64,000 bases of DNA from an uncultured Alphaproteobacteria bacterium (GTDB lineage: Bacteria > Pseudomonadota > Alphaproteobacteria > HIMB59 > GCA-002718135). The stretch lies in NCBI GenBank assembly GCA_902577425.1, contig CACGZD010000001.1, forward strand, positions 113,860-177,859. Direction: 5' to 3'. The notes beneath the pieces are model-generated. The model did no database searches. It saw nothing but the letters and a program-made list of their open reading frames with translations, and was not told the origin of the DNA. Shown piece by piece: positions 16,187-64,000 of the stretch (the stretch's first letter is position 1; every line of letters begins with the position of its first letter). Made by a program: the position numbers and the translations under genes.

Positions 16187-16193
16187 CTTTATA

Positions 16194-45450: not shown

Positions 45451-46463
45451 TTGTTTTTTAAGTGAATTTTACCTTCAAGAAAAAGTGATATAGGTTTGGT
45501 AGTTTCAAATTTTTCAAAAGAAATTTTAATAATAGCAGTTAAAGGAGCTGCAAGTAAAACACCAATAATACCCCAAATCATACCCCAGAAGATCAAAGAT
45601 AGAATAACAGTTATTGGATGAAGACCAAATGTTTCACCAAAAATTTTAGGTTCTATTATATTGCCAATAATAATATGTACTATTGCAGGCAATAATATAA
45701 TCAAAACAAAAAAAGTAGGATCTTGAAATTGAAGAAAAGCAACAGGTATAGGAATTAAAACTGCTATAACAGATCCAAAGACTGGTATAAAATTTAATAT
45801 AAAGGTTAAAGTTCCAAAAATAAATGCTAGTTCAATACCTAAAAACCAGTAAATTAAACCTGCTAAAACACCAGTTGCAGAAGAAGTTATGAACTTGGTA
45901 AAAATATATTTTTTTACATTAAAAATTATTTCGTTCCATTCGTTTGAGGTATTAACATTTTTTTTACCTAACAATAGAAATAATGTCATAATTACAACAA
46001 GAACAAACTTTGAAATAAAATTGGCACTATTGCTTAGTATTGTTGAAGCCCAATCTAAAAAAGGAAGTGTTGTAAGAGTATTTCGAATAACTTCTCTATC
46101 AATTTCTACATCATATGCAGAAAGTTGGTTAATTATATAGTCAATCAATACTAATACTTTTGCATTATAATCATCAGCTGATTCAAGAAAAGTTCCCACA
46201 GAGCCAATTATGAAAGGGACAATAATTATAAATAAAATAACTATTAAAATTAAACTAACGAACACAGCTATAATTCTATGAACTCTTAGATTTGTGGTTT
46301 GAAAATCAATTATTGGATCTATAAGAATTCTAATTAATAGAGCCATTACAAAAGGAATCATTATAGGTTTAGTAAAATTCAGAGTGAAGGCTACTGCTAC
46401 TAAAGCTATAATCAATAATGAAGCTGTAATAAATTTATTGTTTTCTAGATTACTTTGATTCAT
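45447..46463 (-). CDS. AI-2E family transporter (PerM/YhhT-like permease)
   Basis: ~338 aa polytopic protein with the family-typical C-terminal region (NFIPVFGSVIA, GNIIEPKIFG, GVLLAAPLTA). Confidence 0.8.
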   Translation of the reverse strand: MNQSNLENNKFITASLLIIALVAVAFTLNFTKPIMIPFVMALLIRILIDPIIDFQTTNLRVHRIIAVFVSLILIVILFIIIVPFIIGSVGTFLESADDYNAKVLVLIDYIINQLSAYDVEIDREVIRNTLTTLPFLDWASTILSNSANFISKFVLVVIMTLFLLLGKKNVNTSNEWNEIIFNVKKYIFTKFITSSATGVLAGLIYWFLGIELAFIFGTLTFILNFIPVFGSVIAVLIPIPVAFLQFQDPTFFVLIILLPAIVHIIIGNIIEPKIFGETFGLHPITVILSLIFWGMIWGIIGVLLAAPLTAIIKISFEKFETTKPISLFLEGKIHLKNN

Positions 46464-47596: not shown

Positions 47597-47635
47597 TTAT
47601 AAACTATGTAAATTAATATTAAAAAATGTCATATC

Positions 47636-48172
47636 ATGAAAAAGATAAAATTATCCCTAATATTACTTATTTTTTTACTAACCAGCAATAAACTTATGGC
47701 TGAAAGTAAGTCAATTTATGATTTCAATTTTTTAGATATTGAGGGAAATATGGTCGAATTATCTATTTTTAAAGGAAAGCCTTTACTAATAGTAAATACA
47801 GCTTCTAGATGCGGTTTTACTCCTCAATATGAAGGACTTCAAAATCTTTTTACAAAATATAGAAAAACAGATCTTACAATCATAGCTACTACTTCAAATT
47901 CGTTTAATCAAGAATTTGAAAATCCAGATGATATTAAAAGAATATGTTTAGTTAATTATAATGTCGGTTTTATTACTTCTAGCCCCATAGAAGTTAAAGG
48001 TCCTAATACTCATCCAATGTTTAAATGGATTAAAAAAAATTATAATCAATCACCCAAGTGGAATTTTTATAAATACTTATTTAATCGTTATGGGACGCTT
48101 GAGGATTCTTGGAGTTCAATTACTAAACCTGACAGTAAAAAAATAATCAAAAAAATTGACAGTTTGATATAA
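47636..48172 (+). CDS. Glutathione peroxidase family protein (Cys-type, signal peptide)
   Basis: GPx motifs LIVNTASRCGFTPQYEGLQ and KWNFYKYL. Confidence 0.88.
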   Translation: MKKIKLSLILLIFLLTSNKLMAESKSIYDFNFLDIEGNMVELSIFKGKPLLIVNTASRCGFTPQYEGLQNLFTKYRKTDLTIIATTSNSFNQEFENPDDIKRICLVNYNVGFITSSPIEVKGPNTHPMFKWIKKNYNQSPKWNFYKYLFNRYGTLEDSWSSITKPDSKKIIKKIDSLI

Positions 48173-48174
48173 AA

Positions 48175-48200
48175 AAAGAGCCACTTTAAAGTGGCTCTTT
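48175..48200. terminator. Bidirectional intrinsic terminator between convergent gpx and groEL
   Basis: Perfect 10-bp stem AAAGAGCCAC-tttaaa-GTGGCTCTTT, with the A/T runs forming U-tracts in both orientations. Read directly from the sequence. Confidence 0.7.
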
Positions 48201-48226
48201 TCAATTATGATAGTTTAATTAAAAAA

Positions 48227-49906
<1,680 letters not shown>

Positions 49907-49917
49907 TTAATTATTAT

Positions 49918-50223
49918 TTATTTCTTTTTTTTGCTTGATGTAATGATCCCCATAATGTCAGATTCTTTCATTATAAGATATTCTTCTCCATTCATCTTTA
50001 CTTCTGTTCCAGACCATTTACCAAACAAAATTTTATCTCCTTTTTTAACATCCAAAGGCTCAAGTTTTCCGTTTTCGTTTCTAGAACCTGAACCAACTTC
50101 AAGAACTTCTCCTTCCATTGGTTTTTCCTGAGCTGTATCAGGTATTATTATACCGCCAGCTGTTTTTTCATCAGAGGCCACTCTTTTAACAAGGACTCTA
50201 TCATGTAATGGTTTAAAATTCAT
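49918..50223 (-). CDS. groES: Co-chaperonin GroES
   Basis: [14 protein letters not shown]...[18 protein letters not shown]. ~100 aa. Upstream of groEL. Confidence 0.96.
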
Positions 50224-50265
50224 ATTTTACCTCAATTTAAGTTATTGATATTTAGTAATTTTTTA

Positions 50266-50292
50266 TTAGCACTCTTTATCATAGAGTGCTAG
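50266..50292 (-). promoter_or_regulatory. CIRCE operator (HrcA binding site) upstream of groES
   Basis: TTAGCACTC-N9-GAGTGCTAg matches the consensus TTAGCACTC-N9-GAGTGCTAA at 17 of 18 positions. It lies 43 nt upstream of the groES start. A CTTGAA box (complement of 50317..50322) further upstream could be the -35 element. Confidence 0.88.
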
Positions 50293-50374
50293 TCATGTAA
50301 TCATTCTTATGAAGTATTCAAGAGGAATTTAAAAAATATTTATAATTTATTGTTAAACAGATAAAAAGGTGGTT

Positions 50375-51433
50375 ATGAATTATTTTTTTCAAGTATTTTC
50401 AAAAACTTTAGGTTTTTTGCTAGCTATAGTGTTTCTAATAGTTTTGATAAGCCTTTTTTTATTCTTTTTTAGAGAAAATCAACAAAAGTATTTTACTTAT
50501 TTAGAAGGAAATAAAGATTCTTCTGAAATTATTGCTATTTTAAAATTGAATGGACCTATAATTTCAGAACCTCCTAATTTTAATGATTATAAAATATTTC
50601 AAAATTTAGAGGTAATTTATCCATCGCTAATAAAAGAATACTTGAGAGAATTAGAACAAAACAATGCAAAAGGTCTAATAATATCAATAAACTCTCCAGG
50701 TGGTGGTGTTTCTGCTACACAAAAAATATATAATTCAATAAAAGACTTTAAAGAAAAAAATAAAATTCCTATTTTTTTTCATACTAAAGATATTCTTACT
50801 TCAGGAAGTTATTGGGTAGCTTTATCAGGTGATAAAATTTTTGCTGATTATGGAAGTATTATAGGAAGTATTGGTGTAAGAGGTCCAAATTGGCTATATT
50901 ATAATTCGCCAACTTTGTTATCTGAAGGTCTATTTGGAAGATCTGTAGAGTCACAAAATGGATTAAAATTATTTTCGAATACTGCTGGTATGTACAAAGA
51001 TATTTTTAATCCCTTTAGAAAACCAACAAAAGAAGAGATAAATAAACTACAAATCATGGTTGATGATATTTATGCTGATTTTGTTAATTTAGTTTCCATA
51101 AATAGAAAAATAGAAAAAAGAATTATTACTGATGAAATAGGTGCCATGGTTTTTAACTCAAAAAGAGCAAAGTTAAATTATTTAATTGATGATGAAAAAA
51201 ATATTAATGAAATTATTGCATTGATTTCAAAAAAATTAAAATTAGAAAATGAAAAAATTCTCATAAATAAGTATAATGAAAAATATAATTTATTTAATTT
51301 AAATTTTACTAACTTTTATAATAATAAAATAGCTAATAAAGATTTAAAAATTATGATTAATAAAAAGTTTTGTAATAATTACTATAACGAATTTAGTAGC
51401 ATAGCGCAAAATTATATATCAATTAATTGTTAA
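50375..51433 (+). CDS. sppA: Signal peptide peptidase SppA (36K type, S49 family)
   Basis: N-terminal TM segment and S49 motifs (INSPGGGVSA, SGSYWVA). I prefer ATG 50375, preceded by AAAGGTGG, over GTG 50369. Confidence 0.8.
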   Translation: MNYFFQVFSKTLGFLLAIVFLIVLISLFLFFFRENQQKYFTYLEGNKDSSEIIAILKLNGPIISEPPNFNDYKIFQNLEVIYPSLIKEYLRELEQNNAKGLIISINSPGGGVSATQKIYNSIKDFKEKNKIPIFFHTKDILTSGSYWVALSGDKIFADYGSIIGSIGVRGPNWLYYNSPTLLSEGLFGRSVESQNGLKLFSNTAGMYKDIFNPFRKPTKEEINKLQIMVDDIYADFVNLVSINRKIEKRIITDEIGAMVFNSKRAKLNYLIDDEKNINEIIALISKKLKLENEKILINKYNEKYNLFNLNFTNFYNNKIANKDLKIMINKKFCNNYYNEFSSIAQNYISINC

Positions 51434-52454
51434 AATTTAATATACTTTTTAATTTTTTAACTTTAACTATTAAATTTTTAAAATAATTACTTTCATCATA
51501 AATTTTAGGAATAATTGTTTTACGAGATCCAGGATTGTCAATATTTATCGAATCTGCTTCCAAATTAAAATAATCAAGATTTAAAATTTTTGCAATTGAG
51601 CTGTATCGATTTTTAAAAATATCTTCATATTTATGCTTATACTTTGGAGTAATCTCAATAATTTTTGTTCCTTTTTGACAAAACACCGTATTAACTAAAC
51701 CAGAACCAGTAGGTGATATGATAATTTCTGCACTTGAAAATAAGTCTATCTGCTCTGGTATACTAAGATTATGCAAATCTACAATTTGAAAGTTTAATTC
51801 AGATAAATAAGATAATACATCATTTTCATTTACTAAATTTCTATAGTTGCAGTTTTGTCTACTAATATATATTTTTTTCTTTTTACTTTTTTTATTAGAA
51901 ACCAAATTATTTAATATTTTAATAGAATTATTTTGATCTAAAAATTGTGGTATTTGTGAATTTTTAAATTTATAAAAACCATCATCTAAAAAAATAAATT
52001 TTGTTTCTATTTGATTTTTATTACAAATTATTTTTATAAAATTTCTAAATTTATTTGGAGTGTTTCTATGTAGTGCAATATTAATTTTTTTTTTATTTAT
52101 ATAAAAAATCCTTGGCAAAAAGCTAATTATATTTCTATAATAATTGTCCTGGGCACTAGATCCCAGAACAAAAATATCAGAAAAAGATTTGAAATTTTTT
52201 TTATTCAAATTAAAATTATTGATAAAATCTTTCTTATAAAAATTATCATATTTTAATGTATCTCCCCACATAAATAATTCAGAAAAAGTAAACATCTCAT
52301 CTGTGATAGGATAATAGTTATGTGTATCAAGATAAAAATTATCATTTAAAATATTACAAGTAAAATCAATATTATTACCTTTTATAGATTGAAACCGAGA
52401 AGATAGGTTGTCGAGTTTTTTTATTTCTAAATTATTATGGTCAGTAAGTTTCAT
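51423..52454 (-). CDS. Glycosyltransferase family 61 / DUF563-like protein
   Basis: C-terminal pattern of DUF563 enzymes (KIYISRQN...R.L.NE, FSSAEIIISPTGSGLVNTVFC). Its 3' end overlaps the convergent sppA by 11 nt. Confidence 0.6.
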   Translation of the reverse strand: MKLTDHNNLEIKKLDNLSSRFQSIKGNNIDFTCNILNDNFYLDTHNYYPITDEMFTFSELFMWGDTLKYDNFYKKDFINNFNLNKKNFKSFSDIFVLGSSAQDNYYRNIISFLPRIFYINKKKINIALHRNTPNKFRNFIKIICNKNQIETKFIFLDDGFYKFKNSQIPQFLDQNNSIKILNNLVSNKKSKKKKIYISRQNCNYRNLVNENDVLSYLSELNFQIVDLHNLSIPEQIDLFSSAEIIISPTGSGLVNTVFCQKGTKIIEITPKYKHKYEDIFKNRYSSIAKILNLDYFNLEADSINIDNPGSRKTIIPKIYDESNYFKNLIVKVKKLKSILNFNN

Positions 52455-52506
52455 TTTAATTTTTTTATCATTTTTTTTTGAACTTTGTCACTTTAAAAAA
52501 GCAAAT

Positions 52507-52583
52507 TGGCGCGCCCGAGAAGAGTCGAACTCCTAACCTTATGATCCGTAGTCATACGCTCTATCCAATTGAGCTACGGGCGC
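52507..52583 (-). tRNA. tRNA-Arg (anticodon ACG), CCA encoded
   Basis: The reverse complement folds as a cloverleaf: acceptor GCGCCCG/CGGGCGC, D-arm GCTC/GAGC, anticodon stem TATGA/TCATA with loop CTACGGA, T-arm AGGAG-TTCGACT-CTTCT. 77 nt. Confidence 0.93.
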
Positions 52584-52717
52584 TTTTAAAATTCAAAATT
52601 AAAATAGTTATTATATTCTTACTTAATATATAATTTATTTTAAAATTTCTATGATTTATAATATTTAAAGATTTCAATAATTGGCAAATTAAGTGCTTTA
52701 ATGTTAAAATCAAACTA

Positions 52718-53263
52718 GTGATAAAATCAATTTTATTCTTTCTATTTTTTTGTCTATTATTTAATGCTTCATATTCAAATGAAATTGGTCAAGTGACCGG
52801 GTATAAAATACCTCGATTTGTGTCTTTAAAATCGGATGAGGTCAATCTTAGAATTGGTTCAAGTACTAACTATCCAATCATTGTAAAATATGTAACCAAA
52901 AATATACCAGTTGAAATTACTGATGAATATAAAAGATGGAGAAAAATTACAGATATGCAAGGAAATGAAGGTTGGATTCATGGAGATCTTCTGAAGGGAG
53001 ATAGATTCGTAATAATTATTAAGAATAATAAATCGATAATTCATATGTATTCAAAACCAGATGGAGTTCCAATAGGAGAAATAGGAGAGTCAAATATTGC
53101 AAAAATAAAAGTTTGTTTAGAAAAATGGTGTAAAATAAAATTTGAAAGTCATAAAGGTTGGGTTAATAAAAAAAATTTATGGGGTGTTTATGAAAAAGAA
53201 GAAGTCAATATACCCTTCTACCAACCAATAATTAATTTAATTTGGAAATTAAATTTATACTAA
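52718..53263 (+). CDS. Secreted bacterial SH3-domain protein (DUF1058-like)
   Basis: Signal peptide and two SH3-like segments (PRFVSLKSDEVNLRIGSSTNYPI...WRKI.D..GNEGWIH, and ...WCKIKFESHKGWVNKKNLWGV). GTG start. Confidence 0.65.
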   Translation: MIKSILFFLFFCLLFNASYSNEIGQVTGYKIPRFVSLKSDEVNLRIGSSTNYPIIVKYVTKNIPVEITDEYKRWRKITDMQGNEGWIHGDLLKGDRFVIIIKNNKSIIHMYSKPDGVPIGEIGESNIAKIKVCLEKWCKIKFESHKGWVNKKNLWGVYEKEEVNIPFYQPIINLIWKLNLY

Positions 53264-53271
53264 AATCATAT

Positions 53272-53820
53272 TTAATTTTTTTTCAGAACTTTCCATGCTA
53301 AAGATATTCTCAGGCCCATAAATCTTTGACTAGGAGCTTCAGCGTAATGACAAATATTTCCAGGAAAAAATACAGCTCTATTAGGTTTATAGCTTACAGT
53401 TTTAATAATTTCAGTATCCAAGGAGGGTTGCTGGCCCATGTGATTTAAAAAAAATAAAGCTCCGTTCCATCTTAAATCCCACTCAGGATTTGGATAATAC
53501 AAGAAAGTAAATGCATTAGCATCAGGTTCTTTTACATCAGAATGAGCAGTGCCATTTTGGTTTGCAGTTTGTCCATTTGCATAACAAGTTATTAATTGAT
53601 AATTAGAAGGATCAGATTTTAGAAATTTTTCACAGATTATTTTAAATAAGGTATCCTGGAAAAAACTTTCTTGATCCAATTTTTCCATATGCCAAAATCT
53701 TCCACCAGTTGCACTTCCACCAGTATAACTCCATTTAGGCCTTTGAAGTAATTCCCAAGTTTTTTTAGCTAAATCTGCTGGGAAGACATTATCAAAAACT
53801 TTTATTTCCAAATCAGCCAT
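53272..53820 (-). CDS. 2OG-Fe(II) oxygenase superfamily protein (small, prolyl-hydroxylase-like)
   Basis: HxD (GTAHSD), a distal His (ICHYAE) and an RxS-like motif (RISLAW) in the expected order and spacing. 182 aa. Confidence 0.6.
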   Translation of the reverse strand: MADLEIKVFDNVFPADLAKKTWELLQRPKWSYTGGSATGGRFWHMEKLDQESFFQDTLFKIICEKFLKSDPSNYQLITCYANGQTANQNGTAHSDVKEPDANAFTFLYYPNPEWDLRWNGALFFLNHMGQQPSLDTEIIKTVSYKPNRAVFFPGNICHYAEAPSQRFMGLRISLAWKVLKKN

Positions 53821-53903
53821 TATATAAAATAAAGTAAATTATATTTTACAAAAATTCTATATTTTTTTTTATTTAATATTTATATTAATAAGAATAAATT
53901 TAA

Positions 53904-55253
53904 ATGCCCAATAAACCCTCAAATATTAACTATGAACTATCAATTATAGCTGATCAGCTTAGTAAAAAGTTAGATAAAATTTCTACTGATGAAATTATAA
54001 AAAAATTAATTTATTTTAAAAAATCTGAACCTAGTGAAATCAAGGTATATAATTACTTATCACTTTTTTATAATAAAAGTTCAAAATATTTAAAAGCAAT
54101 AAATATTTGTAAAGAAGGTATTCATCTTTTTCCAAATGACTCAAATAGTTATTATATAATATCTGAATCTTTTTTAAAATTAAATAAAACAAATGAGGCA
54201 ATTAGTAATTTAAAAAAAGCTATATTAATAAATAATAATAATTATTTTGCACATAATGCATTAGGAAATATTTATTGGAAAAATGACAATATTGATGAAG
54301 CAATATGTTGCTTTCAAAATGTCTTAAAAATAAATCCTAATTTTAAAGATGCAGAAAAAAAAATAAAGATTGCTAGAAAAAAACGTATAGGACTAATTAA
54401 CCATCTTACTTATCATCTCCCAAAAAAGAGTGATAATTTGAGTACAATAAATATTGTTAATGATAAACTTCAAAAAATTAATTCAAATTTTAGTTTAAAT
54501 TGCCTAATTGAGGATGCAAAGATTATTGAACTAATAAATGACATTCAACAAATAATAGAAATAAACCAAATAAATACAGATTTTGAAGGATCTCAAATTT
54601 TTAGAAAAGGTATAATAAAGTATAACTGCACAAGACACTTTAAAATTTTTAATAAATTTAAAGTTATTCCTTATAATTGTTTTAGTTGTTATAAAATTCA
54701 AATTGAACCTAGAAATATTATTGAATTAATAAAATTATATTTGGTTCTTGAAAACTTAGATTTAGAAAAAAATTTAACAAGAAAATGTATGGTTGAAACT
54801 AGAAATAATATTTCAGGAAAATATAAAGGTTATATTTATTGTATAGGATTAAAGGAAGCTGAACACACCCTTAAATTAATTAATCCAATTTTAGATAATA
54901 CTATAGGAGTTAAAATACCAAGATTTATTAAAAGAGGTTGTTCAGAGTTTGGTATTACTTACCCAAATTATAAAGAATTGAATCCATTAAGTACAAATTT
55001 TATGAAATATAATAAAACATGGAAAGAAAAAGAGGAGATTATTGACAGTGAATTAAAAGAGCAGGTTAAAGGAAAAAAATTAATTGACGAAGATAAGTTC
55101 TATATGAAAAAAAATAAAATTGGAATTACTATAAGAGATGTATTGGTAATATATAATTGGTTATTTTATGCTCAAAAAATAAAAGATGAAAATGTTAAAA
55201 AATTGTGTAAAAAAATAACATATTCTAACTTTATTGATAAAAAATTTATATAA
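53904..55253 (+). CDS. TPR-repeat protein with uncharacterised Cys-containing C-terminal domain
   Basis: N-terminal ~150 aa has TPR-like repeats (YYIISESFLKLNKTNEAISNLKKAILINNNNYFAHNALGNIYWKNDNIDEAICCFQNVLKINPN). The C-terminal ~285 aa has conserved-looking Cys pairs (CTRH...CFSCYK, RKCM, RGCSEF) and no family I recognise. Confidence 0.6.
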   Translation: MPNKPSNINYELSIIADQLSKKLDKISTDEIIKKLIYFKKSEPSEIKVYNYLSLFYNKSSKYLKAINICKEGIHLFPNDSNSYYIISESFLKLNKTNEAISNLKKAILINNNNYFAHNALGNIYWKNDNIDEAICCFQNVLKINPNFKDAEKKIKIARKKRIGLINHLTYHLPKKSDNLSTINIVNDKLQKINSNFSLNCLIEDAKIIELINDIQQIIEINQINTDFEGSQIFRKGIIKYNCTRHFKIFNKFKVIPYNCFSCYKIQIEPRNIIELIKLYLVLENLDLEKNLTRKCMVETRNNISGKYKGYIYCIGLKEAEHTLKLINPILDNTIGVKIPRFIKRGCSEFGITYPNYKELNPLSTNFMKYNKTWKEKEEIIDSELKEQVKGKKLIDEDKFYMKKNKIGITIRDVLVIYNWLFYAQKIKDENVKKLCKKITYSNFIDKKFI

Positions 55254-55260
55254 TAAATAA

Positions 55261-55335
55261 TGGCTGGGGCGGTAGGATTCGAACCTACGAATGTCGGCTC
55301 CAAAAGCCGATGCCTTACCGCTTGGCGACGCCCCA
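55261..55335 (-). tRNA. tRNA-Gln (anticodon UUG), CCA encoded
   Basis: The reverse complement TGGGGCGTCGCCAAGCGGTAAGGCATCGGCTTTTGGAGCCGACATTCGTAGGTTCGAATCCTACCGCCCCAGCCA closely parallels E. coli tRNA-Gln. Anticodon loop TTTTGGA. Confidence 0.93.
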
Positions 55336-55425
55336 ATAATTATATTTTTTTCTTATATAATAAATGTCTATTATCGAAAACAAAACTTAAAAGGAACAAA
55401 AAAAACATTTATACCATAAATTAGT

Positions 55426-57159
55426 ATGAGCAAATACTTTAATGTATTACCAAAAAATGAAGATATTAAAACATCTGATATATTCAATGGTTGGGCAAAT
55501 ATTTACTCCCTTATAAAAAAAGAAACTCGTAATAAAAGCATGATTATTGCTATAGATGGTGATTATTCTACAAATTGGGATATTTATATTCAAAACTTAA
55601 ATTTAATTTTTAAAGATAAAAAAATAAAAATTTTAAATTTTAATAAATGCATTTTAAGTTTTAAAAAAATTAATAATTATTTTTTAAATCATTTATCAGA
55701 TAAAGATAAGTTATTTGGAAAAATTACTAATAAAAATATTGACAGCATAATCAACAAAAAGATTTTGAAACAATATAAAAGAATTTTTTTTAAAATTTTG
55801 CACTCAAATAAATTAAGTTACATTATATGTATTGGAACTGGCATTGGAAATTTAAATATTAACAAATATTTTGATCTATTATTTTATTCAAATTTAACTA
55901 GGCATGAATCAATAAATAGCAATAACTGGAGTAAAAAAATTGGCAAAACCCAAACCATAAGCCCTAATACTTTCTATTACCATATCTTTCCAATTATGGA
56001 AAAATATCAAAATCAACTTATAAAAAAAATTGATTATTACATTAATTTTAGTAAGAATAATTTTCCTGTAATAATATCAAATGATAATTTAAAAAAAATA
56101 ATTAATGCCTCAACTCAAATTCCTATAAAATTTAATCCTTTATATGAGCCGGGGGTTTGGGGTGGGCAATGGCTATGTAAAAAAAGAAAATTAAAATTGC
56201 CAAACTGCTCGATAGGTTTAGAATTAATTGCGCAAGAACAAAGTTTAATTTTTAAATTTAAAAATAAAAAATTAGAAATTCCTTTTTCATTAATAATGTA
56301 TTTAAAGTCTAAAAATATATTAGGAGTAAAATTTTCAAAAAAATATAAAAATTATTTTCCTGTAAGAATAGCCTATGATGATACTTATAAAAATAAAGGA
56401 GACAATCTTTCAATACAAGTTCATCCAGATAAAACATATATGAAAAAAAATTTTAATGAACCAATTGGTCAATCAGAAATATATTATATTACTGATAGTT
56501 ATAAAAAAAGTGGAGTATTTTTAGGTTTTAAAAAAAAGATATCAAAAAAAGAATTTATAAAAGATGTTATTAATTCTAGCAAAAAAAATGTAAAAATTGA
56601 TTATGAAAAATATATTAACTTTGAAAAAGCTAAAAAAGGAAATCTTTATTTAATTCCACCAGGAACCGTTCATGCTTCAGGCAAAAATAATTTTGTTTTA
56701 GAAATTAGTAACACACCCTATCGATATACATTTAAAATATATGATTATTGTAGAAAAAATCTAGATGGAAAAAAAAGATCATTATCTATAGATCATGCAT
56801 TAAAAGTTTTAAAATTTAATAGAACTGAAAATTGGATTAAACAAAATCTAATTCCCAAACCTCAATTTATAAGAAATATTAATCAAGGTACAGAATATCT
56901 ATTATCAAACAATAAAAATTTTACTTTTAACATTTACAGGATTCATTTTAAGAAATATTATTTTGATAAAACTCAAAATAGTCTTCATATTATTAATCTT
57001 GTAGAAGGATCCAAAATTAGGATAATAGCTAAAAAAAATAACCATGAAGTAGTAATCAAACATTCACAAACTCTACTTTTACCTCAATCATTAAATGAAT
57101 ATAAAATATTGAATATGGGTAAGGGCGAATGTAAAATTATTAAGATAATTTTGAAGTAG
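55426..57159 (+). CDS. Class I mannose-6-phosphate isomerase-like cupin with ~235-aa uncharacterised N-terminal extension
   Basis: The C-terminal half carries PMI type I motifs (YEPGVWGGQWL, LSIQVHPD, SEIYYI, PPGTVHASG). No family recognised for the N-terminal part. Confidence 0.6.
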   Translation: MSKYFNVLPKNEDIKTSDIFNGWANIYSLIKKETRNKSMIIAIDGDYSTNWDIYIQNLNLIFKDKKIKILNFNKCILSFKKINNYFLNHLSDKDKLFGKITNKNIDSIINKKILKQYKRIFFKILHSNKLSYIICIGTGIGNLNINKYFDLLFYSNLTRHESINSNNWSKKIGKTQTISPNTFYYHIFPIMEKYQNQLIKKIDYYINFSKNNFPVIISNDNLKKIINASTQIPIKFNPLYEPGVWGGQWLCKKRKLKLPNCSIGLELIAQEQSLIFKFKNKKLEIPFSLIMYLKSKNILGVKFSKKYKNYFPVRIAYDDTYKNKGDNLSIQVHPDKTYMKKNFNEPIGQSEIYYITDSYKKSGVFLGFKKKISKKEFIKDVINSSKKNVKIDYEKYINFEKAKKGNLYLIPPGTVHASGKNNFVLEISNTPYRYTFKIYDYCRKNLDGKKRSLSIDHALKVLKFNRTENWIKQNLIPKPQFIRNINQGTEYLLSNNKNFTFNIYRIHFKKYYFDKTQNSLHIINLVEGSKIRIIAKKNNHEVVIKHSQTLLLPQSLNEYKILNMGKGECKIIKIILK

Positions 57160-57161
57160 AT

Positions 57162-58070
57162 ATGAAAAATATTATAGCACTTGATATTGGAGGCACTTCA
57201 ATTAAATCAGCAATAATTAAATCCAATGGATCATTTTTAGAAAATTCTTGTAAAATTAGTGAGATTGATTCAAATCAAAACAAAGATTATATTATTAATA
57301 AGTTTATTTTTCCAATTAAACAATCTATTCAATATTTAAATGAACAGAAAATTGATTTGGATGGTATTGCTATCTCTATATGTGGTCCTTTTGACTATGA
57401 AAAAGGAATTTCATTAATAAAGAATCTAGATAAATATGAGTCAATTTATAATTTAAATATAAAAAAAATAATTAGAGAAAAATTATTTTTATCAAATAAA
57501 ATTCCTATAGTATTTGATCCAGATGCATGGAGTTTTGGAAGAGGAGAAGTAAATTTTAATAATTATGAAAATTATAATAAAATCATTGTATTCACTATGG
57601 GTACTGGAATTGGAAGTTGCTTTATTGAAAACAAAAAAGTTGTTTCAGAAGGCAAAGGTATTCCTTGTTTTGGGTGGGTCTCTGGCCAAAAATATAAAGA
57701 TGGAATATTAAATGACTACACTTCAAGTATATTTATGAAAAAAAAATATTTTGAGATAACTAAAGAAAATATTAGCATAAAATCTATGGCAGAAAGAGCT
57801 AGAAAAGAAGATAAAAATGCAAAAGCTATTTTTGATGAAATAGGCAATACTCTAGGATCTTTTTTAAAAGAAAATTTTGTAGATGAATTTAAGACAAATT
57901 GTATAATATTTGGAGGCCAAATATCTATGGCATCAGACCTATTTATTGACAAAATACAATATCATCTTCAAAATAGTAAGTATTTAAAAAAAATTACAAA
58001 AGCACAAGATATACAATTTGCTGCTCTAAAAGGTGCTGCTCAACTTTTATTTGAAAAAAAACTAAGATGA
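57162..58070 (+). CDS. ROK-family sugar kinase-like protein (lacks the CxCGxxGC zinc motif)
   Basis: ASKHA/ROK N-terminus ALDIGGTSIKSA, the second phosphate motif TMGTGIGS and a C-terminal GGQIS...AALKGAA. No Cys-rich zinc motif is present. Confidence 0.68.
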   Translation: MKNIIALDIGGTSIKSAIIKSNGSFLENSCKISEIDSNQNKDYIINKFIFPIKQSIQYLNEQKIDLDGIAISICGPFDYEKGISLIKNLDKYESIYNLNIKKIIREKLFLSNKIPIVFDPDAWSFGRGEVNFNNYENYNKIIVFTMGTGIGSCFIENKKVVSEGKGIPCFGWVSGQKYKDGILNDYTSSIFMKKKYFEITKENISIKSMAERARKEDKNAKAIFDEIGNTLGSFLKENFVDEFKTNCIIFGGQISMASDLFIDKIQYHLQNSKYLKKITKAQDIQFAALKGAAQLLFEKKLR

Positions 58071-58882
58071 ATGATTTAAGAAATCAATTAACAAAAGAAG
58101 GATATATAAAAATTAATAATTTAATTGACAAAAAATTACTTACAAAAATAAATGTTTTAACTACAGATCTAGTAAATAATCAAACTGAAAAAGAAAAAAA
58201 AGAACAGGTCTCAACTGGCAGTATGATTAGTGTATCAAATCATGAAAATTTTTTAAGTTTAATAATAAACGATGAATTACTTAAAATTTTTAGTAGAATG
58301 GGGTACAATAATCCTAAATGGTCTTCAGGTTATATTATTGGTAAAGAATCTAATTCAGCACCTCTTTATTGGCATACTGATTGGTGGGCATGGGATGACC
58401 CTATAAGTTTTTCTAAAGAACCTCCAATGATATTTGTAATGTTTTATTTAACAAATACAAATAAAACAAATGGTTGTCTAAGGGTAATTCCTGGATCTCA
58501 TTTAAAATTTAATGAAGTGCACAAATATATAAAGAAACACCATTCACATTATAGATTATATAATAATCCGGATGACCCCGTATTCAAATCTGTAAAAGAC
58601 GAATTAGATGTAACATCAAATTTAGGAGATGTTATTATTGGAGATGGTCGTATCCTTCATGCAGCTCATCCTAATTTAAGTAATAAAATGCGGACTGTTG
58701 TTACCTTATGGTATTACCCTGACTTTGATGAATTACCTGATCATATTAAAGCAAGTTCAGAGGATCATCACAAATGGCCAAAAAATTGGAATGAAAAATC
58801 ATTAGATATTTTAAAAAAATACTTTCCAAAATATGAAGGAAATGCAAAAAAAATTAAATGGAATAGAATAAGATATGAATAA
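58067..58882 (+). CDS. Phytanoyl-CoA dioxygenase (PhyH) family Fe(II)/2OG oxygenase
   Basis: HxD (WHTD), NGCLRVIPGSH, distal His (RILHAAHPN) and an Arg (KMRTVVTLWY) in PhyH order. 4-nt overlap with the ROK gene. Confidence 0.7.
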   Translation: MNDLRNQLTKEGYIKINNLIDKKLLTKINVLTTDLVNNQTEKEKKEQVSTGSMISVSNHENFLSLIINDELLKIFSRMGYNNPKWSSGYIIGKESNSAPLYWHTDWWAWDDPISFSKEPPMIFVMFYLTNTNKTNGCLRVIPGSHLKFNEVHKYIKKHHSHYRLYNNPDDPVFKSVKDELDVTSNLGDVIIGDGRILHAAHPNLSNKMRTVVTLWYYPDFDELPDHIKASSEDHHKWPKNWNEKSLDILKKYFPKYEGNAKKIKWNRIRYE

Positions 58883-59642
58883 AAAAGAGATTTCTATTCA
58901 GCTCTATACTGCTAGAAATTTCAAACCTTACGAAAATATATTTAAATTTTTATCTGAGCAAGGCTTCCAGGATGTTGAATTATTTGAAGTTGAAGCCTTT
59001 GATGAAACTAGAGATTTATTAGATAAATATAATTTAAATGCCAAATCCTCTCATATAGGATTTGATACTCTTAAAGATACAAAGAATATTATTTCAAATT
59101 TACAAAAGCTAAAAGTTAAACATGCAATTATACCTTGCCCAGTTGGAAAACCAGGAGGAAAGTTTGAAGCAATTTTTGATAAAAATGAAAAAGAATGGAA
59201 TGATTTTGGTAAAGAACTAGCTTCTTATGTAAAAATTTTTGAAGATAATGGAATGACCTTAGGTTATCACAATCACGCATTCGAATTTAATATGCTTCCT
59301 AGTGGTAAAATGCCTATAGAGTGTATTTTGAATCATAATGAAAAATTAAAATATGAAATTGATATAGGCTGGGTAGTAGCTGGAAAAGCAGATCCGATAT
59401 TTTGGATTAAAAAATATGCTTCGAGAATCATTGCTTGTCATTTGAAAGATTTTTCTTCACCTGATAAAAATTTAATTGATCACAATTCACAATGTGCAAT
59501 TGGTAATGGTTTTATAGATTGGAAATCTATTCTTTATGAAATAAAAAAAACCAACTGTGAAATTTTAGCCTTAGAACATGATGATCCTAAAGATTATAAA
59601 GACTATGTTTTGAAATCTTTAAATTTTTTGAGTAACATATAA
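58875..59642 (+). CDS. Xylose-isomerase-like TIM-barrel protein (sugar phosphate isomerase/epimerase family)
   Basis: Metal-ligand pattern of the AP endonuclease 2/XI-like TIM barrel (E..., YHNHAFEF, DIGW, HLKD, EHD). 8-nt overlap with the PhyH gene. Confidence 0.7.
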   Translation: MNKKEISIQLYTARNFKPYENIFKFLSEQGFQDVELFEVEAFDETRDLLDKYNLNAKSSHIGFDTLKDTKNIISNLQKLKVKHAIIPCPVGKPGGKFEAIFDKNEKEWNDFGKELASYVKIFEDNGMTLGYHNHAFEFNMLPSGKMPIECILNHNEKLKYEIDIGWVVAGKADPIFWIKKYASRIIACHLKDFSSPDKNLIDHNSQCAIGNGFIDWKSILYEIKKTNCEILALEHDDPKDYKDYVLKSLNFLSNI

Positions 59643-59643
59643 A

Positions 59644-60768
59644 ATGAAAGTTGGAATCATAGGTTGTGGAAATATTTCTGAAATATATTTTAAATGTCAA
59701 AATATTTATAATAATTTTGAAATAGTCGCTTGTGCAGATATAAAACTTGAAGCTGCAAAAAAAACTGCAGAAAAATTCAATTTAAAGTTTCAAAGTGTTG
59801 AAAATCTTCTTTCAAATAGTGAGATTGACTTAATAATTAATCTAACCATTCCATCAGCTCACAAAGAAATAACAATTAATTCTTTAAAAGCTGGAAAACA
59901 TTGTTTTAGTGAAAAGCCACTTGCTATGAACTTTGCTGAAGGAAATGAAATTCAAGAAATATCTAAACAAAAAAATCTTTATGTAGGTTGTGCTCCTGAT
60001 ACTTTTTTAGGTGCAGCAGGTCAAAAAGCAAGAGCTTTAATCGATGAAAATAAAATTGGAAATATAGTTCTGGGAACTTTTAATCTCATGAATCACGGAA
60101 TGGAACACTGGCATCCTAATCCAGATTTTTTTTTCAAACCTGGAGCAGGCCCTGTATTTGATGTTGGAGTATATTATATTACTCATTTAGTTAATTTAAT
60201 TGGTCCTGTAAAAACTATAAGCGCTATAAGTGTAACGGTAAATGATGAAAGAACTATTACAAGCGAACTTAGATATGGAGAAAAAATAAAAGTTGAAACT
60301 CCCTCAACATTAATAGGTACTTTAGGTTTTACAAATAATGCAAAAATACAGTTTTTTTGTTCTTGGGATGTTTGGAAACATCAACACTCAACAATAGAGC
60401 TATATGGTTTAAATGGATCAATGATATTACCAGATCCAAATTTTTTTAGTGGTGATATTTTGGTTGCTAATAAAGATAAAGATTGGCAATTAATCAACAA
60501 TGATAATATGTTGTTAGGGATACCAAACATGACTGATAGTGATGGATCTAAGATAGCAAATTATAGAGGCATAGGATTATCAGATATGATTGATTCTATT
60601 AAAAATCAAAGACAGGCGAGATGTTCGCTTACTCTTTCAATGCATGTTTTAGAAGTAATGGAAGGAATCATTAAATCTGCAGAAAAAGAAGAAATTTATA
60701 ATTTAAAAACTCAACCTTCTCAACCCAAATTTTTTGATGAGAATGAAATTAGAAAATTAAAAAAATAA
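59644..60768 (+). CDS. Gfo/Idh/MocA family NAD(P)-dependent oxidoreductase
   Basis: N-terminal Rossmann VGIIGCGNIS and the family EKP motif (CFSEKPLA). 374 aa. Confidence 0.8.
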   Translation: MKVGIIGCGNISEIYFKCQNIYNNFEIVACADIKLEAAKKTAEKFNLKFQSVENLLSNSEIDLIINLTIPSAHKEITINSLKAGKHCFSEKPLAMNFAEGNEIQEISKQKNLYVGCAPDTFLGAAGQKARALIDENKIGNIVLGTFNLMNHGMEHWHPNPDFFFKPGAGPVFDVGVYYITHLVNLIGPVKTISAISVTVNDERTITSELRYGEKIKVETPSTLIGTLGFTNNAKIQFFCSWDVWKHQHSTIELYGLNGSMILPDPNFFSGDILVANKDKDWQLINNDNMLLGIPNMTDSDGSKIANYRGIGLSDMIDSIKNQRQARCSLTLSMHVLEVMEGIIKSAEKEEIYNLKTQPSQPKFFDENEIRKLKK

Positions 60769-60798
60769 ATTTATATAAATTTTTGTTAAATATAATTA

Positions 60799-63450
60799 CT
60801 AAGAAATAACTATAACTTTTCTTTCATGGGGCTTAAAATCAATAAAATATTTTCCTGAAGAACTAGGATCTACTTTTTCTAACAATTTATTTGACATATT
60901 TTCAATAGATAATTTTTTTATCTTAATATAGTTAGATTCAATTTCAAATGTTTTATCCTCTGAAGAGTAGTTCATAAGATGTAAATAGGATTTTTTATTA
61001 TTTTTTTTCACATCAGTAATATAAATATTATTTGAAGCAATATTGAACATTTTTATATTAGTTCTTTTTTTAGAATTTCCTCTATCTTGGTAGTTATGAA
61101 CAATTGGTTCATATATATAAGGCATGATATCTTGTATACGCTGCAAAAGATCCTTTGCTTTTTCAAAATTGATTACAAATTCATATTTTATGAGCTTTGA
61201 TTCATCTGCTAAAAAATTAGTATTCCAATAATTATTATATAACCACGCAGAAAGCATTTTGTACTTTCTCTCTACTTTATTATTTTTGTCAAATTTACCA
61301 AAATTTAATCCTCCTACTTGCCATAGCGGACAATCTTTAGTTGAAATTGTAATACCTCCATTACTTCCATGATAAGATATCCAATTTTGAGTTGTAAGAT
61401 AGTGTTTACAAGAGAAAGGAAGGTGATCTTTATCTAACTGCAGTATTGCCCCGGCAGTTTCGAAATGACATTTTGTATTTGTTCCTGAATTTATTGGCAT
61501 TGGCAAATAAAGAGCATGAGGATTACTGTCTGGTTTTTTCAAAATTTCCACATTAATAATTAAAGATGATTGGTTAGTAAAAAGTTTGTAATTAATTTTA
61601 AATTCATCTCCGTTAGATAAATAAAACTCTTCTTCAACCGATATGTAATTTGTCTTTTTAAAAAATTTTCTTTCTTTTAATTTTGCATTCTCTTTAATAT
61701 TTTTCCATTTATTATTCCAAGAAGAGCTCCAATCAAGTGAGCCAGAGACAACAGGTTTGAAAATTTCAGTTCTTTTTTGAGTTTTAGGATATTCTAAAAT
61801 AGGAACACCAAAGAAAAATTCTTTATTATTTTTAATAAAATTATGTTTCTTTGAAAAAATATTTTCAATTCCTCCTTTTTCCGCAAATTGAACACTAATT
61901 TTTTTATTGCTAATTTCTAATTTTTTTATTTTTAAATCATTAGAAATACTTTTTTGAAAATCTATTTTTTTAGCAGTTAAAGGAGGTATTTCTATTGGAC
62001 CCAACCAATCAACAAGATCATCATTTATTTCAGACATGGTCATATCTTGACGATGGACTGAATTTACTTTTTTTTGTCTTGTTAAGTCAATTTCTCTTCT
62101 TACCCACCAATTGTCTTTTTCATTCATTTTATCAAAATCAAGTTTCATTTTTTTTCCTGCTTTATTCACTTCACTTAAATATGAATAGACACCTTTGAAT
62201 TTAGGAATTTTGATAAATGTTTTTATTTTAAAAGGAAGGGAGTTAAAAGCTATAGCGCTAGCTTTTTCTCCTCCCATTAATTGAGCTATTTTTTCAACAC
62301 CATCTCTTCTAAGCATTCTAGCTATTGATAAGCCTTCGTACGGTAAGACTTGTTTCATGATCCACTGCATTTTAGTTTCATCGGAAAAAGGGAAATTTAT
62401 TGATCTATCTGCTCCCCATGTATGTTCAGCATATAAAGCTAAGGATTCTTTTGATTTTTTTTCTAGATCTGTTCGTCTAATGTCATCTTTTTTAGTATGC
62501 GTAAAAAGATTAACTATGTTAGCCTGGCGTAAGGCTTTCTGACCAGCTGAATTTATACGAGTTTCATTAGGCGTACTTCCACAACCAAAATTCCACCAAT
62601 CAGACCAATCTCCTTGCATAGTTGGAATTTTTTCTTGGGTTTTTAGTTTTTCAAAAAATTCTGAAATGGTCACCATGCGTATAGGAAAATTTTTATATTT
62701 ATTATTCCAAGTTTTTAAAAAAGGAATGATATCTGGATTTGGAGGAGCATTATCATGATGATTAGTATTTGTAATCTGGGCCATAAAAAAATCATAAGAA
62801 TAATTTGGCTTTTTTAAAAACTTAGGAAAATTTTCAATTGTTTTTTTTGTTCCAGATATTGAAAATGGAATTTTTAAAAAGTGTCCTGCTGTAGCTCCGT
62901 ATATAGGGCCATTATAAGCAAGTAGTTTTCTTTTTGTTGGACTTTGCCAATAAAAACCACTTGGCCAAGGTTTTAAAGCATGTCCGTAAAATTCATTGAT
63001 AGCCATGCTAAAACCTTTAATACCAAAATCAAGCAATGCATCTACCATCCCCCAAGGAACGCCATTAATATCACAGTCCATGGCATAATTAATTTTCATT
63101 CCTTCTTTACGTAAAAAAGTAATCGGTTCTAAGTTTTCGATAATCATTTGATGGTCCATTAACGGCGTCATGTGCCATTTGCATCCGGCTACATCAATTA
63201 ATCCTTTGTGATGCAATTTTAAAAATCTTTTGCGATATTGGGGTGTTGTATTTTTCCACCAATCCATTGTTATTCCTGTAACCTCACATGTCCATTTAAA
63301 TTGACAATTAGGTTCATTAGATGCATTTTTTTCTGCTAACTCTATTGCTTCCTCTATATATCTTTTATGTAATTCAAATATTACAGGCTGAGGAGAAGTA
63401 TAACCTATATCAGTGTGAGAATGATGAAGAAGCAAAATTTCTTTAATCAT
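60799..63450 (-). CDS. GH38-like glycoside hydrolase (alpha-mannosidase family resemblance, N-terminal domain)
   Basis: The N-terminus LLHHSHTDIGYT matches the GH38 H-x-H-x-D metal-binding start, and the multidomain size (883 aa) fits. I could not confirm the catalytic nucleophile region by eye, so the family call is tentative. Confidence 0.5.
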   Translation of the reverse strand: MIKEILLLHHSHTDIGYTSPQPVIFELHKRYIEEAIELAEKNASNEPNCQFKWTCEVTGITMDWWKNTTPQYRKRFLKLHHKGLIDVAGCKWHMTPLMDHQMIIENLEPITFLRKEGMKINYAMDCDINGVPWGMVDALLDFGIKGFSMAINEFYGHALKPWPSGFYWQSPTKRKLLAYNGPIYGATAGHFLKIPFSISGTKKTIENFPKFLKKPNYSYDFFMAQITNTNHHDNAPPNPDIIPFLKTWNNKYKNFPIRMVTISEFFEKLKTQEKIPTMQGDWSDWWNFGCGSTPNETRINSAGQKALRQANIVNLFTHTKKDDIRRTDLEKKSKESLALYAEHTWGADRSINFPFSDETKMQWIMKQVLPYEGLSIARMLRRDGVEKIAQLMGGEKASAIAFNSLPFKIKTFIKIPKFKGVYSYLSEVNKAGKKMKLDFDKMNEKDNWWVRREIDLTRQKKVNSVHRQDMTMSEINDDLVDWLGPIEIPPLTAKKIDFQKSISNDLKIKKLEISNKKISVQFAEKGGIENIFSKKHNFIKNNKEFFFGVPILEYPKTQKRTEIFKPVVSGSLDWSSSWNNKWKNIKENAKLKERKFFKKTNYISVEEEFYLSNGDEFKINYKLFTNQSSLIINVEILKKPDSNPHALYLPMPINSGTNTKCHFETAGAILQLDKDHLPFSCKHYLTTQNWISYHGSNGGITISTKDCPLWQVGGLNFGKFDKNNKVERKYKMLSAWLYNNYWNTNFLADESKLIKYEFVINFEKAKDLLQRIQDIMPYIYEPIVHNYQDRGNSKKRTNIKMFNIASNNIYITDVKKNNKKSYLHLMNYSSEDKTFEIESNYIKIKKLSIENMSNKLLEKVDPSSSGKYFIDFKPHERKVIVIS

Positions 63451-63453
63451 AAA

Positions 63454-64000
63454 TTATCCTTTTCCTGTTCCCATAGATCCAAGAGTAAGTCCACGAATAA
63501 AATGTCTTTGAAGTAATAAAAAGATAACTAATGTTGGTATACTTGCCATGACTGTAGCCATTAAAATTGTAGGGCCATCCATTTGTGCATATAAGTTTTG
63601 CATTCCAACTAAGGCACTAGTAACTGGTCTCACTGAGGTTGATCTTGATAAAACCATTCCAAAAAGTAAATCATTCCATATCCAAGTAAATTGAATTAAA
63701 AAAACTAATAGCAAAGGAGCCTTAGCTAAGGGCATCATAATTTTATAAAGTATTTGCAAATTAGATGCTCCTTCTATTTTAGCTAATTCTTGTAATTCCC
63801 AAGGGACGGTTAAGAAAAAACCTCTTAAGACAAATGTTGCAAATGGTATACATATGGAAACATACATCAAAATAAGTCCAAATTTTGTATTATAAATTCC
63901 AATAGCTACATATGCTTCAAATAAAGGCAATAGATACATTTGAAAGGGAAATACAGTTCCAGAATATATAAGCAAAAACCAAAGTAAGCCATTTTTCATT
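63454..64000 (-). CDS. Carbohydrate-type ABC transporter permease (MalG/binding-protein-dependent family), C-terminal part, gene continues past window end
   Basis: EAA loop AKIEGASNLQILYKIMMPLAKAP and a typical C-terminal TM pattern. The Met at 63999 is probably internal. Its stop lies 3 nt upstream of the GH38-like gene start. Confidence 0.8.
   Translation of the reverse strand, partial: MKNGLLWFLLIYSGTVFPFQMYLLPLFEAYVAIGIYNTKFGLILMYVSICIPFATFVLRGFFLTVPWELQELAKIEGASNLQILYKIMMPLAKAPLLLVFLIQFTWIWNDLLFGMVLSRSTSVRPVTSALVGMQNLYAQMDGPTILMATVMASIPTLVIFLLLQRHFIRGLTLGSMGTGKG

Follow-up and report, generated by a model that had tools for sequence, protein, structure and literature searches.

This article concerns a sugar locus toward the end of a 64,000-nucleotide stretch of DNA (the window), and three consecutive genes within it that encode a PhyH-family dioxygenase, a TIM-barrel protein and a Gfo/Idh/MocA oxidoreductase. 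We call them PhyH, TIM and Gfo. The host is a HIMB59/AEGEAN-169 alphaproteobacterium. Our best explanation, to which we give a probability of roughly 0.55, is that the three genes close a five-gene operon in a mannoside-utilisation locus, and that this locus is made of two modules that have evolved separately. Module A comprises an ATP-binding cassette (ABC) transporter, a GH38-like glycoside hydrolase, a mannose-6-phosphate-isomerase-like protein (PMI), a ROK-family kinase and PhyH. Module B is the TIM–Gfo pair, which, going by homology and structure models, we predict to be a minimal, cytosolic, marine form of a known oxidation–elimination route for breaking glycosides.

The case for two modules comes from gene contexts, which we gathered by looking up contigs and by scanning genomes and metagenomes. 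Close relatives of PhyH (53–97% identical) yielded 11 dereplicated contexts. Each of the 11 has ROK as the gene just before PhyH, the two mostly overlapping by 4 nt. All nine whose contigs extend far enough also contain GH38 and ABC genes, and in most contexts a long PMI gene lies ahead of ROK. TIM follows PhyH in three of the 11 (the window with L100; L005, L006 and L101; and L105), and the complete TIM–Gfo pair does so only in the first two, which make up one narrow HIMB59 sublineage. In L105 (positions 3721–4074) the gene after PhyH encodes a divergent TIM, 41% identical to that of the window and likewise resembling the lyase AtOGE described below, which overlaps a 79%-identical PhyH by 8 nt; the contig ends before any Gfo could appear. 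The other eight contexts end at PhyH (L001, L085–87, L088, L089/90, L102/L104, L103, L106 and L107). Among them, L102, L103 and L104 have PhyH proteins 86–87% identical to that of the window, as close as those of the trio-bearing L005 and L006, yet they lack TIM–Gfo. The exact PhyH of the window had no match in the contig index.

The TIM–Gfo pair, meanwhile, usually lives somewhere else. Summing cluster member counts by hand, we obtain about 1,900 sequences for its TIM clade and about 415 for the clade of close PhyH relatives. TIM (255–257 aa) and Gfo (373–374 aa) form an invariant adjacent pair, 64–81% identical to the window proteins, in another ABC locus, with the Gfo homologue always immediately downstream of the TIM homologue on every long contig examined. 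This usual home (L091–L096) holds LacI, a binding protein, two permeases and MalK, or else a class I fructose-bisphosphate aldolase, a 347-aa second Gfo and an aldo-keto reductase, and it adjoins MlaC, MlaA, UvrD and LigA. None of PhyH, ROK and GH38 is found there on the long contigs examined. Since PhyH occurs mostly without TIM–Gfo, and TIM–Gfo mostly elsewhere, the trio consists of two modules joined in one sublineage: the three-gene combination is a lineage-specific juxtaposition. An earlier reading of the window (the original prediction) had treated the trio as one functional module and looked to its co-occurrence in other genomes. The trio does recur beyond the window, in L100 and in L005/L006/L101, but eight of the 11 PhyH contexts are without TIM–Gfo, and the single module gives way before a trio confined to one HIMB59 sublineage, plus the divergent TIM of L105.

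The annotated part of the window (44971–64000) places the sugar genes as follows, between coordinates of the window.

55261–55335, minus strand: tRNA-Gln(ttg), called by ARAGORN and Rfam; marks the left boundary of the sugar locus, which is also that of a variable, recombining segment
55426–57159, plus strand: long PMI, 577 aa, with a C-terminal class I mannose-6-phosphate-isomerase-like cupin domain
57162–58070, plus strand: ROK-family sugar kinase, 302 aa (PF00480, 80.7 bits)
58067–58882, plus strand: PhyH-family Fe(II)/2-oxoglutarate (2OG) dioxygenase, 271 aa (PF05721, 73.5 bits against 22)
58875–59642, plus strand: xylose-isomerase-like TIM barrel, 255 aa, predicted 3-keto-glycoside 1,2-lyase (AP_endonuc_2, PF01261, 53.7 bits against 31.1)
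59644–60768, plus strand: Gfo/Idh/MocA NAD(P)-dependent oxidoreductase, 374 aa (PF01408, 78.6 bits against 24; PF22725; PF02894)
60799–63450, minus strand: GH38-like glycoside hydrolase, 883 aa, putative alpha-mannosidase (PF01074, 53 bits against 25)
63454–64000, minus strand: ABC sugar-transporter permease, 3' part, cut by the window end (PF00528)

The Pfam calls for PhyH, TIM and Gfo all exceed their gathering scores. The 8-nt overlap and 1-nt gap by which the original prediction had joined the three genes within a sugar operon hold at their exact coordinates: the ATG of TIM at 58875 falls within ATGAATAA, the TAA of PhyH occupies 58880–58882, and the TIM stop (59640–59642) is parted by a single nucleotide from the Gfo ATG at 59644. 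What had been missed is that the coupling continues upstream. ROK and PhyH overlap by 4 nt (ATGA), and the 577-aa PMI-like open reading frame stops 2 nt ahead of ROK. With this spacing the operon has five genes (long PMI, ROK kinase, PhyH, TIM and Gfo), the first of which begins soon after tRNA-Gln; in L005, L006, L102 and L104, too, the operon is immediately preceded by this tRNA. The operon is convergent with the GH38-like hydrolase and ABC transporter genes, and the hydrolase that had been noted next door is, by its Pfam match, this GH38-N protein. The 8-nt PhyH/TIM overlap is not peculiar to the window: it recurs in L005, L006 and L105 and, going by tblastn coordinates, in L100 and L101. 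A promoter and terminator scan found no plus-strand terminator-like sites inside the operon; in DNA this AT-rich (the window is about 27% G+C) the scan is uninformative, returning 53 promoter-like sites where 43 would be expected.

The closest genomes are a HIMB59 metagenome-assembled genome (L005) and a single-cell genome (L006), whose proteins are 86–98% identical to those of the window from PhyH through the permease. In L006 the locus is complete and opens with tRNA-Gln. One strand then carries ROK–PhyH–TIM–Gfo. The other carries GH38, two permeases (the one cut by the window end is 283 aa in full) and a 410-aa SBP_bac_1 binding protein. Beyond these come an HpaI-like aldolase and ispE. In the window, the genes flanking the sugar locus are housekeeping ones (GroEL, MscS and others).

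What might module B do? The best match of TIM among PDB sequences is 8BVK (E 1.8e-29, full-length, 32.9% identity over 240 aa). This is AtOGE, an enzyme of Agrobacterium tumefaciens that depends on Mn2+ and cleaves 3-keto-O-glucosides by beta-elimination (PMC10628242). The metal residues of AtOGE (H132, D163, H189 and E233) are kept in TIM as H132, D163, H189 and E234, and so are the alternative-site residues E39, H66 and E161 and the catalytic H134, eight out of eight. The sole difference among the residues compared is in the second shell, where N52 of AtOGE becomes R46. Both metal-site and catalytic residues are invariant in 20 marine homologues. An AlphaFold2 model of TIM (predicted local distance difference test score, pLDDT, 94.1) was compared with the PDB using Foldseek, and ranks 1–6 went to chains of three 3-keto-glycoside 1,2-lyases: AL1 of Alistipes, AtOGE, and BT1 of Bacteroides (template modelling, TM, scores TMq 0.68–0.81 and TMt 0.72–0.84). 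The hydratase AtHYD came in at 19, IolI at 21, IolE at 23 and the epimerase YcjR at 44. From alignment and model together, we predict that TIM is a metal-dependent 3-keto-glycoside 1,2-lyase, that is, a beta-eliminase.

The inositol enzymes in that list deserve a word, for the original prediction had named orthology to iolG and iolE as the ordinary explanation of the pair and proposed a structural comparison with IolE and IolI. That comparison, now run, favours the lyase over the inositol reading. TIM and Gfo do find IolE (3.7e-10) and IolG (3.9e-16) in NCBIfam, but weakly, with scores of 39.8 (cut-off 290) and 58.8 (cut-off 355). In the Foldseek ranking the structures of IolE and IolI come after every lyase, and there are no inositol genes among those annotated in 44971–64000 or in the full L006 locus. 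We reject the orthology and regard an ordinary inositol pair as extremely improbable. The alternative that the original prediction had kept in reserve, redox-based cleavage via 3-keto intermediates, has instead become the best reading of TIM–Gfo, judged by the homology to AtOGE, AL1 and BT1 and the conserved catalytic residues. Nor is there any loss of metal or 2OG ligands, which are intact in both PhyH and TIM.

A closer competitor keeps the 3-keto intermediate and dispenses with glycosidic cleavage. TIM–Gfo would then interconvert sugars, either in the manner of Escherichia coli YcjS/YcjR (a 3-dehydrogenase with a 3-keto-glucoside 4-epimerase) or as a 3-keto-glycal hydratase. Epimerases, hydratases and dehydratases use the same fold and metal chemistry, the Foldseek list includes AtHYD, IolI, IolE and YcjR, and AL1 and BT1 themselves have slow hydratase activity (bioRxiv 10.1101/2024.03.25.586180). 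Yet the full-length AtOGE match is far stronger than any other PDB match, the catalytic His134 and all metal ligands are kept, and the top six structural matches belong to three lyases. We think interconversion quite unlikely.

Gfo has the expected architecture of a Rossmann N-domain and a C-domain (PF01408, 78.6 bits; PF22725, 63.5 bits), and on reading the sequence we find GxGxxG at residues 6–11 and an SEKP motif. Its best PDB match is DgpA, a C-glycoside 3-oxidoreductase (3.5e-15), and its best NCBIfam match is levoglucosan dehydrogenase (1.7e-18, 66.5 bits with a cut-off of 650). By analogy with these enzymes, Gfo is predicted to be a sugar or glycoside C3 dehydrogenase–reductase that partners TIM. 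The N-termini of TIM and Gfo, read by eye, have no signal peptide.

Three known systems help to place the pair. The AtOGE pathway of A. tumefaciens (GlycDH, AtOGE, AtHYD and a Gfo reductase; PMC10628242) has a TIM of similar length (259 aa against 255 in the window, 33% identical) whose Mn-site residues and catalytic His agree with those of the window protein, a Gfo/Idh/MocA protein encoded alongside, and an ABC-transporter sugar locus around them. It differs from the window in the Asn52 that is Arg in our protein and in possessing an FAD-dependent GlycDH and an AtHYD-type hydratase, both absent from the window locus; the window host, moreover, is an oligotrophic marine bacterium with a locus built around a GH38 enzyme. 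Without an FAD-dependent GlycDH at the locus, Gfo would have to do the oxidation. That is how the AL and BT clusters of gut Bacteroidota work. They encode a 3-keto-beta-glucoside 1,2-lyase (AL1/BT1), a DUF1080 lyase–hydratase (AL2/BT2) and a Gfo 3-dehydrogenase (AL3/BT3), structures of which are available (bioRxiv 10.1101/2024.03.25.586180; PDB 8TCD, 8TCR and 8TCT). The 3-keto-glycoside is formed by the Gfo, which binds its NAD tightly, and the TIM lyase then removes the aglycone by elimination; the AL cluster was discovered through an alpha-thiomannosidase screen (bioRxiv 10.1101/2024.03.25.586180). AL1 is the best structural match of the TIM model (TM 0.81), and in the window, as in these clusters, a Gfo 3-dehydrogenase would work together with a TIM lyase. 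The differences are that AL1–AL3 have secretion signals and act in the periplasm, whereas the window proteins have no signal peptides (again from reading the N-termini); that the window locus has no DUF1080 partner; that TIM is only 22–23% identical to AL1 and BT1; and that Gfo scores below the cut-offs of the BT_2158 and BT_2159 equivalog models. The third comparison is with DgpA/DgpBC, which deglycosylate C-glycosides, and with LgdA/LgdB of levoglucosan catabolism. DgpA and levoglucosan dehydrogenase, the best matches of Gfo, are C3 oxidoreductases with TIM-barrel partners, but Gfo lies far below the equivalog cut-offs and TIM is closer to O-glycoside lyases. The NCBIfam, PDB sequence and Foldseek results for TIM contain no DgpB/C-like or LgdB-like matches.

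Module A is where the mannoside comes in. The C-terminal cupin domain of the long PMI spans residues 227–560 or thereabouts, and residues 227–474 match the Bacillus subtilis PMI 1QWR (E 3.6e-15). SIQVHPD, E and GTVHA in the window protein align with the corresponding motifs of 1QWR, which we take to be its zinc-binding motifs. The score against TIGR00218 is 33 bits, for a cut-off of 116. The N-terminal 226 aa (55426–56103) have no Pfam or NCBIfam match and are conserved across a large family of PMI-like proteins of 560–620 aa, with 153 representatives at E<1e-30 in an exhaustive HMMER search. ROK and the long PMI also occur as fusions in proteins of about 890–990 aa (P0373, P0381, P0383, P0405 and P0440), which ties kinase and isomerase to one pathway. 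Read by eye, the ROK protein of the window (57162–58070) lacks CxCGxxGCxE, the cysteine-rich zinc motif that ROK sugar kinases typically carry. Its weak NCBIfam matches include the beta-glucoside kinase BglK, which suggests that ROK might phosphorylate a glycoside and not free mannose.

The GH38-like protein matches the N-terminal catalytic domain PF01074 and reads HHSHTD at its N-terminus. Since the match is restricted to that one domain model, the alpha-mannosidase specificity is inferred from family and context. Homologues at about 36% identity in Halocynthiibacter and Kaistia lie beside GntR, a second GH38 and an ABC transporter, and also beside a protein resembling aldose dehydrogenases of the short-chain dehydrogenase/reductase family, a lactonase and an acid-sugar dehydratase. 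Aldose-oxidation genes next to GH38 homologues in these cultured alphaproteobacteria would fit the release of a free aldose. For the enolase-superfamily gene beside these homologues, an attempt at assignment to ManD specifically failed. We considered mannosylglycerate hydrolase (MngB) as an identity for the GH38 protein and found nothing in support. Published papers on AEGEAN-169 and HIMB59 make no mention of mannosides, mannosidases or this oxygenase.

What we observe is gene order, family membership, conserved catalytic residues and the separability of the two modules; for the substrates, the sequence of steps and the reaction of PhyH we offer a proposal. Put together, the locus might work as follows. 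The ABC system would import an alpha-mannoside, from which GH38 would free mannose, unless ROK phosphorylates the mannoside beforehand. ROK would phosphorylate the mannose, and PMI would turn mannose-6-phosphate into fructose-6-phosphate. PhyH may carry out one oxidative step on the sugar or a substituent, clearing the way for kinase and isomerase. In module B, Gfo, using NAD+, would oxidise C3 of a glycoside. The TIM lyase, with its metal, would abstract H2 and expel the aglycone, and the keto-glycal would be hydrated to a 3-keto sugar that is then re-reduced, probably by the same Gfo. The linkage cleaved in this way is probably one refractory to hydrolysis by GH38. In this lineage the TIM–Gfo cassette would have entered the space separating PhyH from the convergent gene for GH38, where it became translationally coupled.

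Some of our observations pull against this explanation. Gfo reaches no equivalog cut-off (LevoglcsnDh 66.5 of 650, BT_2158 27.1 of 750, BT_2159 34 of 650 and IolG 58.8 of 355), so its C3 specificity rests on analogy. The locus has no hydratase of the DUF1080/AL2 or AtHYD type. The GH38-like protein has no match to PF09261 or PF07748, the models of the middle and C-terminal domains of GH38, to NCBIfam, or to a PDB sequence (E 0.01). The separateness of the modules is strained too: the PhyH/TIM junction with its 8-nt overlap also carries the divergent TIM of L105, and in two distant loci, L002 and L081, PhyH homologues have TIM and Gfo nearby. These junctions and neighbourhoods make a functional link between PhyH and TIM–Gfo conceivable. 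Taken further, PhyH, TIM and Gfo would act sequentially on one substrate, such as a methylated or aminated sugar or a cyclitol, the oxygenase removing a substituent before the dehydrogenase and TIM process the ring. Rhizopine catabolism, with its MocDEF oxygenase, MocA and MocC, runs in this fashion. The translational coupling of all three genes speaks for such a scheme, as do the PhyH/TIM overlap retained in L005, L006, L100 and L101, and with a different TIM in L105, and the PhyH homologues (40–44% identity) of L002 and L081. So, up to a point, does a survey of 24 distant PhyH loci, in which five of 121 neighbours are Gfo and three of 121 belong to the TIM family, except that this rate is not clearly above chance for such abundant families (an informal comparison). 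The contexts already described are harder to accommodate: eight of the 11 around close PhyH relatives contain neither TIM nor Gfo, including those at 86–87% identity (L102–L104), and all sampled TIM–Gfo homologues at 64–81% identity are located elsewhere, without PhyH. We regard sequential action of the trio as possible but unlikely.

The two-module explanation leaves PhyH, trailing a ROK kinase in a mannoside locus, as a more novel element than the TIM–Gfo pair. Its residues H103 and D105 (the HxD motif), H198 and R209 are invariant in 21 homologues of 35–86% identity. By analogy with the family, H103, D105 and H198 would form the iron triad and R209 would bind the C5 carboxylate of 2OG, so that PhyH, with its iron and 2OG ligands present, looks catalytically intact. 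The AlphaFold2 model (pLDDT 94.8) is a confident double-stranded beta-helix. Its nearest PDB folds by Foldseek are SptF, SnoK, SnoN, EvdO1, KanJ and proline hydroxylases, at 14–22% identity; for SptF, SnoK and KanJ the probability is 1.00 and TM is 0.55–0.62. SnoK, SnoN, EvdO1/AviO1 and KanJ, all from antibiotic biosynthesis, oxidise sugar C–H bonds and share the fold and the iron and 2OG ligands. They differ in being biosynthetic and in acting on large glycosylated antibiotics, and at 15–22% identity no orthology is implied. Neither does PhyH prove orthologous to characterised members of the family (EctD, KanJ, PhnY and chlorinases): PDB identities are at most 22%, and the NCBIfam scores are 31.5 bits for EctD (cut-off 336) and 18.6 for a chlorinating enzyme (cut-off 226). 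Literature searches turned up no published function for this PhyH clade, nor any PhyH characterised alongside mannosides or ROK/PMI. The original prediction had called a PhyH oxygenase in a catabolic sugar operon unusual. That needs qualifying, for the clade appears repeatedly in sugar loci, with GH38/ROK/PMI, with FrlB-like/PfkB/HxlAB, or with GH32, sulfatase or Gfo.

Looser relatives of PhyH (35–44% identity) are plentiful in sponge symbionts, where PhyH expansions were already known (PMC3909097). Our survey of them took 24 dereplicated loci, mostly from Poribacteria, Latescibacterota and Caldilineaceae, and the 121 proteins encoded within three genes of PhyH. These neighbours are varied and largely carbohydrate-related. 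PhyH paralogues (10), Gfo (5), sulfatases (4), TIM (3) and SIS proteins (3) are among them, together with GH32 and binding proteins. Neighbourhoods so heterogeneous, with no single conserved partner, do not fix the function. Two apparent PhyH fusions of 635 and 790 aa (L053 and L076) proved to be artefacts of calling long open reading frames in high-GC DNA. Paenibacillus montanisoli (L081, 8115–12466) has a cluster in which three paralogues of PhyH accompany a DeoR regulator and a TIM barrel; Gfo and an ABC permease are encoded a few kb upstream. As this species can be cultured, the association of PhyH, TIM and Gfo is open to genetic testing there.

What PhyH might do to a sugar is a matter on which we can only offer a tentative idea, and a rather unlikely one as it stands: that it is a catabolic, carbohydrate-active Fe(II)/2OG dioxygenase of a novel kind, which by oxidation rids mannose or mannosides of a blocking substituent and thereby opens them to ROK and PMI. 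The most plausible substituent would be an O-methyl group, leaving as formaldehyde, which is a weakly supported guess. Microalgal N-glycans bear methylated mannose (PMC6344472), and in marine bacteria a P450 demethylates 6-O-methyl-galactose, the formaldehyde being detoxified through the ribulose monophosphate (RuMP) pathway (PMC6292453, PMC9400963). The likeness to that 6-O-methyl-D-galactose demethylase of marine Bacteroidota is one of function, an oxygenase in a marine sugar locus that removes a blocking substituent ahead of kinase or isomerase steps. A haem P450 with redox partners and an Fe/2OG PhyH belong to unrelated families, and the window has no formaldehyde-handling gene. There are hints from afar. 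In L003 (7601–11818) a PhyH homologue of 41% identity comes directly after bona fide HxlA and HxlB, the enzymes of RuMP formaldehyde fixation; here and in L002 (8862–13053) PhyH homologues of 41–44% identity are flanked by an FrlB-like SIS protein and by a PfkB kinase, and in L002 an MtaA/CmuA-like methyltransferase adjoins the PhyH homologue. A search for HxlA and HxlB near other PhyH homologues found them in L003 and L004 only, which are one organism, so the formaldehyde clue is anecdotal. Were PhyH an O-demethylase, it would be a non-haem-iron counterpart of the P450 methyl-galactose demethylase in abundant oligotrophic bacterioplankton, and some lineages would combine it with a cytosolic two-gene oxidative glycosidase.

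These possibilities matter because of where they are found. HIMB59/AEGEAN-169 bacteria, whose sugar pathways are so far uncharacterised, are abundant in oligotrophic surface oceans and are thought to be more reliant on imported sugars than SAR11 (PMC10308909). The non-hydrolytic route is known so far from soil Agrobacterium and gut Bacteroidota. TIM relatives are numerous in marine metagenomes, and if TIM–Gfo is indeed a minimal cytosolic glycosidase, non-hydrolytic glycoside cleavage would be widespread in ocean bacterioplankton. The kinase-linked PhyH clade, for its part, offers a clearly delimited place to look for a new oxygenase reaction on sugars, and it may be relevant to the PhyH expansions of sponge symbionts, which are large and so far unexplained (PMC3909097).

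The locus is also a mosaic. DNA identity between the window and L006 is 70–76% over ROK and the 5' third of PhyH (57098–58300) and 93–97% over 58300–64000, a step that puts a recombination breakpoint, as judged from the alignment, inside the PhyH gene near 58300. The window's ROK allele is nearest to those of lineages without TIM–Gfo (L103, 95%; L104, 92%). The long-PMI gene is an indel (window 55338–57097): in L005 and L006 PMI is absent and ROK comes directly after tRNA-Gln. Such a region invites the thought that TIM–Gfo is a functionally unrelated passenger, dropped into a recombination-prone spot by tRNA-Gln and sharing a transcript with its neighbours and nothing more. The PMI indel, a second indel at 53255–55260 and the breakpoint within PhyH fit that picture, as does the fact that the usual home of the cassette is another locus. 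Set against it are the tight overlap with PhyH retained in several genomes, the second TIM variant at the same position and the known action of oxidative glycosidase clusters on mannosides. Streamlined genomes, moreover, seldom retain useless co-transcribed genes. We find the passenger doubtful and decidedly improbable.

The 53255–55260 block, between tRNA-Arg and tRNA-Gln, is found in L005 and not in L006. It holds an FlmC-family 2OG-Fe(II) oxygenase (53272–53820, minus strand) and a 449-aa TPR protein (53904–55253). A glycosyltransferase family 61 protein of 343 aa (51423–52454, minus strand) adjoins tRNA-Arg; the family is mainly eukaryotic, and its presence in a streamlined marine bacterium is unexpected. 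Finally, on the metagenomic contig L002, a cluster of Cas1, Cas2 and a reverse transcriptase (RVT_1) lies at 13574–16430, just downstream of the sugar genes.

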